Virus record (IMG/VR): IMGVR_UViG_2563366879_000002
Location: 1 to 44,111 of that record
From: a virus
Lineage: Duplodnaviria > Heunggongvirae > Uroviricota > Caudoviricetes
Strand: one strand, 5' to 3'
Length of the DNA stretch: 44,111 nucleotides
Below, piece by piece: positions 15,484 through 15,637 of this stretch. Under the pieces are notes generated by a model. It searched no databases. It saw only the letters and a program-made list of their open reading frames with translations, and was not told the DNA's origin. Each line of letters starts with the position of its first letter. Position 1 is the first letter of the stretch. The position numbers and the translations under genes are program-made.

Positions 15484-15559
15484 GCCGACTTAGCTCAGTA
15501 GGTAGAGCAACTGACTTGTAATCAGTAGGTCACCAGTTCGATTCCGGTAGTCGGCACCA
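15484..15559 (+). tRNA. tRNA-Thr (anticodon UGU)
   Basis: Hand-folded cloverleaf: acceptor GCCGACT/AGTCGGC, anticodon stem ACTGA/TCAGT with loop CTTGTAA, T-loop TTCGATT, 3-prime CCA. Confidence 0.8.
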
Positions 15560-15562
15560 TAT

Positions 15563-15637
15563 GCGGGTATCGTATAATGGCTATTACCTCAGCCTTCCAA
15601 GCTGATGATGCGGGTTCGATTCCCGCTACCCGCTCCA
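15563..15637 (+). tRNA. tRNA-Gly (anticodon UCC), near-identical to host glyT
   Basis: Hand-folded cloverleaf: acceptor GCGGGTA/TACCCGC, anticodon stem TCAGC/GCTGA with loop CTTCCAA, T-loop TTCGATT, CCA; differs from remembered glyT at the 6:67 acceptor pair. Confidence 0.8.

Follow-up and report, generated by a model that had tools for sequence, protein, structure and literature searches.

Why would a temperate phage carry, between its late antiterminator gene and its lysis genes, two transfer RNA (tRNA) genes that its host already encodes, and where did these genes come from? The question is raised by a tRNA-Thr(UGU) gene followed at a distance of 3 nucleotides (nt) by a tRNA-Gly(UCC) gene in the tailed-phage sequence (Caudoviricetes) IMGVR_UViG_2563366879_000002 of IMG/VR. 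The window, as the term is used here, is the whole stretch of that record that was analyzed (44,111 nt, positions 1 to 44,111), and it is a Rac-like lambdoid prophage of Escherichia coli. The Thr-Gly pair is a known kind of feature, and RefSeq genomes and the genomes of deposited phages already carry annotations for it. It probably represents two functional elongator tRNAs of host origin that travel as a mobile cassette within the late-operon leader, where they would provide an extra supply of two minor tRNAs.

Across the window, exactly two tRNA genes were called by ARAGORN, and both were matched by the Rfam tRNA model RF00005 at scores that are far above chance and well over the gathering score of 29 bits (73.8 bits, E 1.9e-14, for Thr; 65.6 bits, E 3.6e-12, for Gly). 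A first-pass annotation of this DNA had folded both cloverleaves by hand; the two predictors accept them at exactly the same positions and with the same 3-nt spacing. The spacer reads TAT, and the 3' CCA is encoded in both genes. The same two tRNAs are annotated by PGAP in identical DNA of E. coli 2009C-3133. Comparison with E. coli K-12 indicates that the Thr gene is identical to thrU at all 76 of 76 positions; because of this identity, the earlier description of the Thr gene as the more diverged of the two is wrong. The Gly gene matches glyT at 73 of 75 positions; both mismatches fall in a single acceptor-stem pair, 6:67, one on each side, as had been recognized in the first-pass annotation. 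The change, from C6:G67 to U6:A67, is compensatory. The known identity elements for threonyl-tRNA synthetase (ThrRS) and glycyl-tRNA synthetase (GlyRS), together with the discriminator bases, are intact as read from the sequence (G1:C72, C2:G71, G35, U36, and A73 in the Thr gene; G1:C72, C2:G71, G3:C70, C35, C36, and U73 in the Gly gene), and pair 6:67 is not among these elements.

The origin of the pair can be traced to a host operon in which the order is thrU, 8 nt, tyrU, 116 nt, glyT, 6 nt, thrT, and tufB. The phage Thr and Gly genes are 100% and 97% identical to their host counterparts, respectively, and a few flanking bases are shared as well: the TAT spacer corresponds to the host base that follows thrU joined to the two host bases that precede glyT, and an ATG stands directly before the Thr gene in host and phage alike. 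Beyond about 3 nt, in contrast, the flanks are unrelated to the host operon. The synteny of that operon is absent from the window, with no tyrU (or 116-nt spacer) between the two genes and neither thrT nor tufB after them; the promoter region is unrelated, and the phage copy lies inside the late operon. Some other phage Gly alleles are identical to glyT at 75 of 75 positions. The simplest origin suggested by these sequences is capture of an enterobacterial thrU-tyrU-glyT operon minus tyrU and its spacers. A remnant of host thrT directly after the tRNA-Gly gene was also considered and was dropped; the overlap in the MAFFT alignment was short, gapped, and not conserved in relatives.

The fused unit is widely distributed. 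Among deposited phages, the Thr-3 nt-Gly unit is carried by the Shiga toxin 2f (Stx2f) phage phi467, vB_EcoS-683R6, PhiR47_1, SerU-LTIIb, and JLK-2012, and IMG/VR holds at least 164 Thr-Gly junctions, 160 of 164 of which have the TAT spacer. The host itself has one copy (median 1 place per genome); in excess of it, about 1,147 places were counted across 5,421 E. coli genomes, and the exact U6 Gly allele was present in 287 genomes. It should be noted that the two host genes merge into one place in the junction query, such that the excess places and the 287 U6 genomes are the usable figures. In a survey of one genome per species, the unit was found in E. coli, Shigella flexneri, E. ruysiae, Citrobacter braakii, and Enterobacter hormaechei. 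The cassette occupies the same position in combination with three Q families and three types of lysis cassette, and it is among the commonest non-coding cassettes of Escherichia/Shigella lambdoid prophages. By array type, the IMG/VR copies comprise Thr-Gly alone (86), Ile2(CAU)-Lys(UUU)-Thr-Gly (39), Ile2-Arg(UCU)-Thr-Gly (14), and rarer forms.

Sequence variation among these copies is limited and structured. The Thr gene is identical to that of the host in 96 of 158 copies, and a D-loop variant (U16C/U20C) is present in 31 of 158. For the Gly gene, U6:A67 is the commonest phage allele (66 copies), followed by C6:G67 (53 copies), with three U6:G67 intermediates; the series C6:G67, U6:G67, and U6:A67 is a textbook compensatory path. 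In a set of 28 unique loci with homology to the window over 200 nt to either side of the pair, the tRNA bodies have a nucleotide diversity of about 0.01 and the flanks one of 0.05-0.13, a 5- to 13-fold difference that argues for purifying selection on the tRNAs.

Related arrays also differ in the amino acids that they serve. Anticodon switches were noted at positions 1122-1197 of locus L004 and 2816-2889 of L014, and in the arrays of L008, L015, and L016. At the second array position, a single scaffold occurs with the anticodon for Arg(UCU), Lys(UUU), Leu(UAA), or Phe(AAA), and a plasmid-borne derivative of glyT has been wrecked into a pseudo-Lys gene. Cargo is inserted around the cassette in several relatives, before or after the tRNAs (L005, 4262-4836; L016, 3978-4552; L015, 4443-5588; L007, 1766-3001); it includes terB with a DUF3927 gene, LT-IIa enterotoxin genes, and stx2f.

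The features that surround the pair are compiled in Table 1, together with the coordinates of other elements that are discussed below.

Table 1. Coordinates of the tRNA pair, its neighborhood, and further elements of the prophage in the window.
Feature	Position	Strand	Basis or remark
tRNA-Thr(UGU)	15484-15559	+	ARAGORN (tgt), Rfam RF00005
tRNA-Gly(UCC)	15563-15637	+	ARAGORN (tcc), Rfam RF00005
Q21-family late antiterminator gene (DUF1133)	14585-15121	+	Pfam, PHROG, PDB similarity
Putative pR'-like promoter, TTGCAA-17 nt-TTCAAT	15119-15147	+	Sequence reading; right after the Q-gene stop codon
Intrinsic terminator, tR' analogue, about 70 nt past pR'	15216-15245	+	Terminator scan
AT-rich tract, then TTGACA at 15377	15250-15376	+	
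Candidate dedicated tRNA promoter, TTGCGA-16 nt-TATCAT	15393-15420	+	Promoter scan, 9/12 matches
5' leader hairpin just before tRNA-Thr	15428-15480	+	Fold -20.4 kcal/mol, z -2.5
Predicted multi-hairpin spacer with GCACUG/CAGUGC closing helix, then U-run	15665-15763	+	Fold -43 kcal/mol, z -3.1
Probable divergent STnc100/PasD-type small RNA	15778-16026	+	Covariation, covariance model
Convergent terminator, 11-bp stem and T-run	16048-16072	-	Terminator scan
Lysis cassette: P21-type holin, lysozyme, Rz (Rz1 embedded)	16411-17584	+	Pfam Phage_holin_2_1, Phage_lysozyme, Phage_lysis; open reading frame calls
RalA antitoxin small RNA	1557-1735	+	Rfam, 223.8 bits
Weak second match of the junction-domain model, leader of kilR	6309-6436	-	27 bits
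queH	12154-12840	+	nin region, beside hokD/sok
Sok antitoxin	12908-13083	+	Rfam, 119.6 bits
trkG	17722-19179	+	Just after the lysis genes
ParB/Srx-like gene, then PHROG 842 match	19317-21033	+	Before the terminase genes

The first-pass annotation had read the locus as a Q-like gene, a terminator, the tRNAs, cargo, and a lysis cassette, and had likened this order to that of Shiga toxin (Stx) phages. The protein encoded upstream of the tRNAs is indeed Q-like, with matches to Pfam DUF1133 (7e-103), Phage_antitermQ (28.2 bits, cut-off 26), and PHROG 753 'anti-termination protein Q-like' (4e-78) and a resemblance to the solved Q protein of phage 21 (PDB 6jnx/6p18, E 1.6e-4). The terminator that follows it has a 7-bp stem with 5 G-C pairs and a T-rich tail, and the downstream genes are those of a lysis cassette, as had been supposed. 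The tRNAs are thus encoded on the late strand, 3' of the Q gene, promoter, and terminator and 5' of the lysis genes, which is the placement seen in phage 933W. The proposed order is therefore sustained, but the cargo is not a protein gene: the tRNAs and the holin gene are separated by about 770 nt of non-coding, structured sequence in which an STnc100-like small RNA (sRNA) is located. Upstream, the block that runs from the -10 hexamer of the pR'-like promoter to the terminator (15142-15247, + strand) recurs as a unit, with about 90% conservation, in other phages, and the fold of 15154-15250 has a predicted energy of -30.8 kcal/mol (z -2.9). By analogy, this pR'-to-terminator unit would be the counterpart of the lambda 6S and StxS short transcripts. 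One carrier of the conserved block is listed as an Actinobacillus phage. Closer to the tRNAs, the hexamers of the candidate tRNA promoter are largely invariant in 28 unique homologues, and the outer stem of the leader hairpin, GGTTCT/AGAACC, is changed to GGTTCC/GGAACC in SerU-LTIIb.

The likeness to Stx phages is sound, because the record of phage 933W annotates the same series: in order, Q, pR', qut, terminators, a 'pT putative tRNA promoter', the tRNA genes ileZ-argN-argO, a terminator, and stx2AB; moreover, the Stx2f phage phi467 carries the Thr-Gly pair itself. The tRNA genes of 933W likewise lie on the late strand between Q, pR', and the terminators on one side and the lysis genes on the other, they decode codons that are rare in E. 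coli, pT is at a place equivalent to 15393-15420 of the window, and STnc100 is encoded further downstream. The two loci differ in the tRNAs, which in 933W are Ile(CAU) and two Arg rather than Thr(UGU) and Gly(UCC), and in that stx2AB lies between the tRNAs and STnc100 of 933W whereas protein cargo is absent from the window. Both sets of tRNAs are joined in relatives of the window, in arrays of the type Ile2-Arg/Lys-Thr-Gly. Phage tRNA genes 3' of Q were reportedly annotated with the 933W genome in 1999. The public records of phi467, vB_EcoS-683R6, PhiR47_1, and SerU-LTIIb list the unit of the window itself, Thr-TAT-Gly, as tRNA-Thr and tRNA-Gly; what differs is the neighborhood, in that stx2f is located upstream in phi467, additional Ile2 and Lys tRNAs are present in PhiR47_1, and the module is duplicated in SerU-LTIIb, where a thrU-derived tRNA reads Arg(UCU). 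In SfI, Sf6, ST64T, PS3, and P21, tRNA genes for Asn(GUU) and/or Thr(UGU) are encoded 3' of Q alongside an ACA bias, and a codon-supply argument has likewise been made for SfI (PMC3636060). Compared by their published description, these phages share with the window a Thr(UGU) gene directly after Q, and the Q protein of the window belongs to the phage 21 family; the partner tRNA in these phages, however, is Asn and not Gly.

How might such a cassette be used? From its position, the tRNAs are likely expressed by Q-dependent read-through from pR', and the conserved sigma-70-like site at 15393-15420 could also drive them in the lysogen. The cassette would be carried in the late-operon leader of lambdoid phages, past a Q21-family gene, a pR'-like promoter, and a terminator. 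On induction, transcription by Q-modified RNA polymerase would continue through the tRNAs and the sRNA region to the lysis and structural genes, and the sigma-70-like promoter, 63 nt upstream of the tRNA-Thr gene, might allow the tRNAs to be expressed in the lysogen too. Cleavage by RNase P and trimming of the 3' ends would be expected to release the two tRNAs, each of which is encoded by a single-copy gene in the host. Decoding capacity for ACA (and ACG) and GGA (and GGG), which the phage uses at about twice the host frequency, might then be raised to the benefit of phage fitness.

Codon counts, made with our own open reading frame calls and a host sample of 14,244 codons, fit this explanation. 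Per 1000 codons, ACA is used 11.5 times in late genes, 18.1 times in early genes, and 6.5 times in the host, and the corresponding values for GGA are 13.2, 15.6, and 7.0; these enrichments of 1.7-2.8 times have Fisher p values of 2e-4 to 1e-11. Several observations weigh against the codon-supply explanation or against the evidence for it. AGA, AGG, ATA, and CGA are enriched 2.7-5.5 times and no phage tRNA is present here to read them; GGA and ACA come no higher than 7th and 9th when the 61 codons are ordered by enrichment. The ACA and GGA bias is stronger in early genes, beyond the help of a tRNA that is made only late. The promoter scan returned 3 sites versus 3.4 expected from shuffled sequence, and the low diversity of the tRNA bodies could partly reflect gene conversion from host copies. 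A comparison of ACA and GGA in late genes with the host, as suggested in the first-pass annotation, thus bears out the enrichment but not its specificity to these two codons; because other codons are more enriched and the early bias is stronger, the codon evidence is consistent with the proposed function without discriminating for it. The trkG gene that follows the lysis genes is compositionally foreign, with a GC3 (G+C content at third codon positions) of 0.31, and contains ACA and GGA at 20.6 and 26.8 per 1000 codons, respectively, although these rest on small counts (10 and 13).

The sequence between the tRNAs and the holin gene (15638-16410) contains no open reading frame of note, yet its conservation extends to phages whose lysis cassettes are of three different kinds. 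In the predicted multi-hairpin spacer within this block, the GCACUG and CAGUGC motifs are invariant in 10 diverged copies. The element that follows is composed of a long hairpin (15778-15841), a multi-helix junction (15859-15962), an AU-rich linker, and a strong terminator (15999-16026). In an alignment of 33 non-redundant copies, canonical pairs fill 97.8% of pair cells, versus 39-49% when the partners are slid, and double changes are found at 21 pairs versus 3-8 in the slid controls; none of 500 shuffles reached the observed values. Scans of the structured RNA against Rfam at gathering level and at E<=1 yielded nothing convincing, and the literature provided no match to its sequence motifs. 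The element was at first viewed as an undescribed family. That view was dropped when a covariance model and the 933W record linked it to STnc100. The model, R1, was made from window-type copies and scores the window element at 108 bits; it also matches the STnc100 locus just after stx2B in 933W (E 1e-6), which Rfam scores at 207.7 bits, and that of JLK-2012 (E 9e-9). Conversely, the Rfam model for STnc100 (RF02076) scores the window copy at 17.5 bits, versus a gathering score of 47, yet the match spans the full model (1-206). Intermediate loci (L078, L065, and L089), in which the element lies about 390 nt past the Thr-Gly pair, pass both R1 and the Rfam model. The sequence comparisons thus identify 15778-16026 as a probable divergent member of the STnc100/PasD group of prophage sRNAs, and annotation pipelines miss it because its score falls under the Rfam threshold. 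The DLP12 nmpC-essD region was considered, with the IpeX sRNA in mind, as a homologue of the non-coding block and was discarded when no homology was found.

The STnc100/PasD group has been described in the moron region 3' of pR' (PMC4104026; preprint 10.64898/2026.05.13.724894). The window element shares with it this position past pR', a closing helix, a CCCC/GGGG hairpin, a GGAGGCACC motif hairpin, an AU-rich linker, and a terminator, and differs in having an extra 5' hairpin and in being linked tightly to tRNA-Gly rather than to an esterase gene. Of 103 copies of the sRNA, 85 are preceded on the same strand, at a distance of about 300 nt, by a tRNA-Gly gene, whereas only about a third to a half of the Thr-Gly cassettes have the sRNA element. 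Matches to 15755-16030 were detected by blastn (distant mode) in 428 of 5,426 E. coli genomes. On the opposite strand, the convergent terminator is located where Stx phages carry anti-sRNAs of the AsxR/AgvB type; AsxR of 933W is encoded right after STnc100 and on the opposite strand. The region at 16048-16072 has no sequence homology to AsxR and no Rfam match, and the terminator may end an undescribed short sRNA. The junction domain of the sRNA model has a weak second match in the leader of kilR, with which it shares the closing helix, a GGUUU.G.GGGAAA motif, and a hairpin with an AGGCA loop. In K-12 Rac, the counterpart of this match (L223, 1763-1890, - strand) is positioned between kilR and KilS, an annotated sRNA. 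The match may reflect a distant relative within the early-left operon.

Do the tRNAs serve some purpose other than codon supply, or none? One possibility, tentative and considerably less probable than codon supply, is that the cassette replenishes, or acts as a decoy for, tRNAs cut by host anticodon nucleases, notably AriB of the PARIS system, such that an induced or superinfecting phage could still translate. AriB cleaves Lys(UUU), Thr(UGU), and Asn(GUU), with Thr(UGU) a prime target, and T5 copies of AriB-targeted tRNAs rescue infection (PMC12409363). The Thr(UGU) of the window shares the anticodon of an AriB target, and related arrays add Lys(UUU) (at least 39 loci) or Asn(GUU) (JLK-2012) beside Thr-Gly or alternate among Arg, Lys, Leu, and Phe anticodons at their second position. 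Moreover, the Lys(UUU) built on an Arg scaffold in relatives has G39 and should resist AriB, for which a U39-to-A change abolishes cleavage, and the common U16C/U20C variant (31/158) affects the D-loop, which has been implicated in recognition (PMC12409363). For the window copy itself, this explanation is not supported. Its Thr gene has no cleavage-site substitution and, because it is identical to thrU at the AriB site (U36-A-A-U-C|A41), its product should be cut like the host tRNA; Gly(UCC) has not been reported as a target; the window lacks Lys and Asn tRNAs; and the genome-encoded tRNA-Thr of T5Mos was insufficient to overcome PARIS (PMC12409363). For this copy, counter-defense could possibly operate through a dosage or decoy effect only. 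A broader proposal, about as doubtful, is that Thr-Gly and the STnc100-like RNA form an autonomous mobile non-coding unit, with its own promoter, leader hairpin, and terminator, that is expressed in both the lysogenic and lytic states. Its value might lie in protecting translation from tRNA-targeting immunity (e.g., AriB acting on tRNA-Thr(UGU)) or in reprogramming host translation rather than in simple codon matching, and the anticodon switching of its neighbors could be the fast-evolving arm of the same arms race. The joint occurrence of the tRNAs and the sRNA could alternatively mean that the tRNAs serve mainly as cut signals for RNase P and RNase E in the late leader, such that they release or stabilize the sRNA within a single promoter-leader-tRNAs-sRNA-terminator unit. 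The frequent upstream tRNA-Gly (85/103 sRNA copies) would suit such a role, as would the candidate promoter that precedes the tRNAs, the strong terminator that follows the sRNA, and the lack of any canonical terminator from the one to the other. However, a half or more of the Thr-Gly cassettes are not followed by the element, stx2AB separates STnc100 from the tRNAs in 933W, and the anticodons and every synthetase identity element have been preserved by selection, although a function in processing would not by itself require them; a role in punctuation is therefore rather improbable.

Two further explanations deny the tRNAs a selected role as phage genes. If the pair were host DNA acquired through illegitimate recombination and carried as a neutral passenger, (near-)identity to host genes would be expected, and degenerate copies do exist, including the Thr gene of JLK-2012, which ARAGORN does not call, scattered variants that break stems, and the wrecked plasmid copy. 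It is hard to reconcile neutrality, though, with diversity that is 5-13 times below that of the flanks across mosaic contexts, with a compensatory change at pair 6:67 for which G:U intermediates exist, or with retention in well over a thousand prophages in combination with different Q and lysis modules, and this explanation has little probability. Since tRNA genes are classical attachment (att) sites, the pair might instead mark an attachment site or recombination hot spot. Matches to tRNAs in the flanks of Pas sRNAs have been read as insertion hot spots (preprint 10.64898/2026.05.13.724894), and the site 3' of the tRNAs does accept varied cargo, such as terB and toxin genes. Yet both genes are complete and internal to a prophage that integrates next to ttcA with its own integrase, they are always in the orientation of the late operon, and a search of the window for att-like repeats, in which up to 3 mismatches were tolerated, did not find the 3' end of either tRNA a second time. 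An integration remnant is accordingly the least probable of the explanations, and very improbable in absolute terms. A supply of two minor elongator tRNAs to the phage remains the preferred explanation.

The surroundings of the pair are those of a resident prophage. Over 1.3 kb at this locus, the window matches E. coli chromosomes such as those of 2009C-3133 and Trh52 with 100% identity, and in these PGAP annotates tRNA-Thr, tRNA-Gly, and a DUF1133 protein. In 2009C-3133, the locus belongs to a complete Rac-like lambdoid prophage that adjoins ttcA, with the order intR, xisR, ralR, recET, kilR, repressors, ydaUV, queH, hokD, DUF1367, ybcO, DUF1133, the tRNAs, essD/rrrD/Rz, trkG, terminase, and head and tail genes. 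The window and this prophage are not collinear over their full length; offsets differ, and 2009C-3133 contains an IS3 insertion. A second tRNA-related function is present on the window in queH, which encodes an epoxyqueuosine reductase for queuosine modification of tRNA. The prophage also encodes two type I toxin-antitoxin systems, ralR/RalA and hokD/Sok. Ahead of the terminase genes, a ParB/Srx-like gene is followed by a match to PHROG 842 'beta-glucosyl-HMC-alpha-glucosyltransferase' (GREB1-related in PGAP), and these genes may constitute a DNA-modification module.

The finding is correct but ordinary, because the arrangement is common and has already been annotated in lambda-like phages. 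What is added is modest: the pair is a fusion of host thrU and glyT that is widely spread and under clear constraint. Matches to tRNAs beside prophage sRNAs can be read as phage-borne genes of the late operon and not as integration scars, and a divergent STnc100/PasD-type sRNA that often accompanies the pair is being overlooked in current annotation. The repeated switching to Lys, Arg, and Asn anticodons in the arrays of relatives makes this a reasonable locus for testing whether the tRNAs of temperate phages function in codon supply or against anticodon nucleases.

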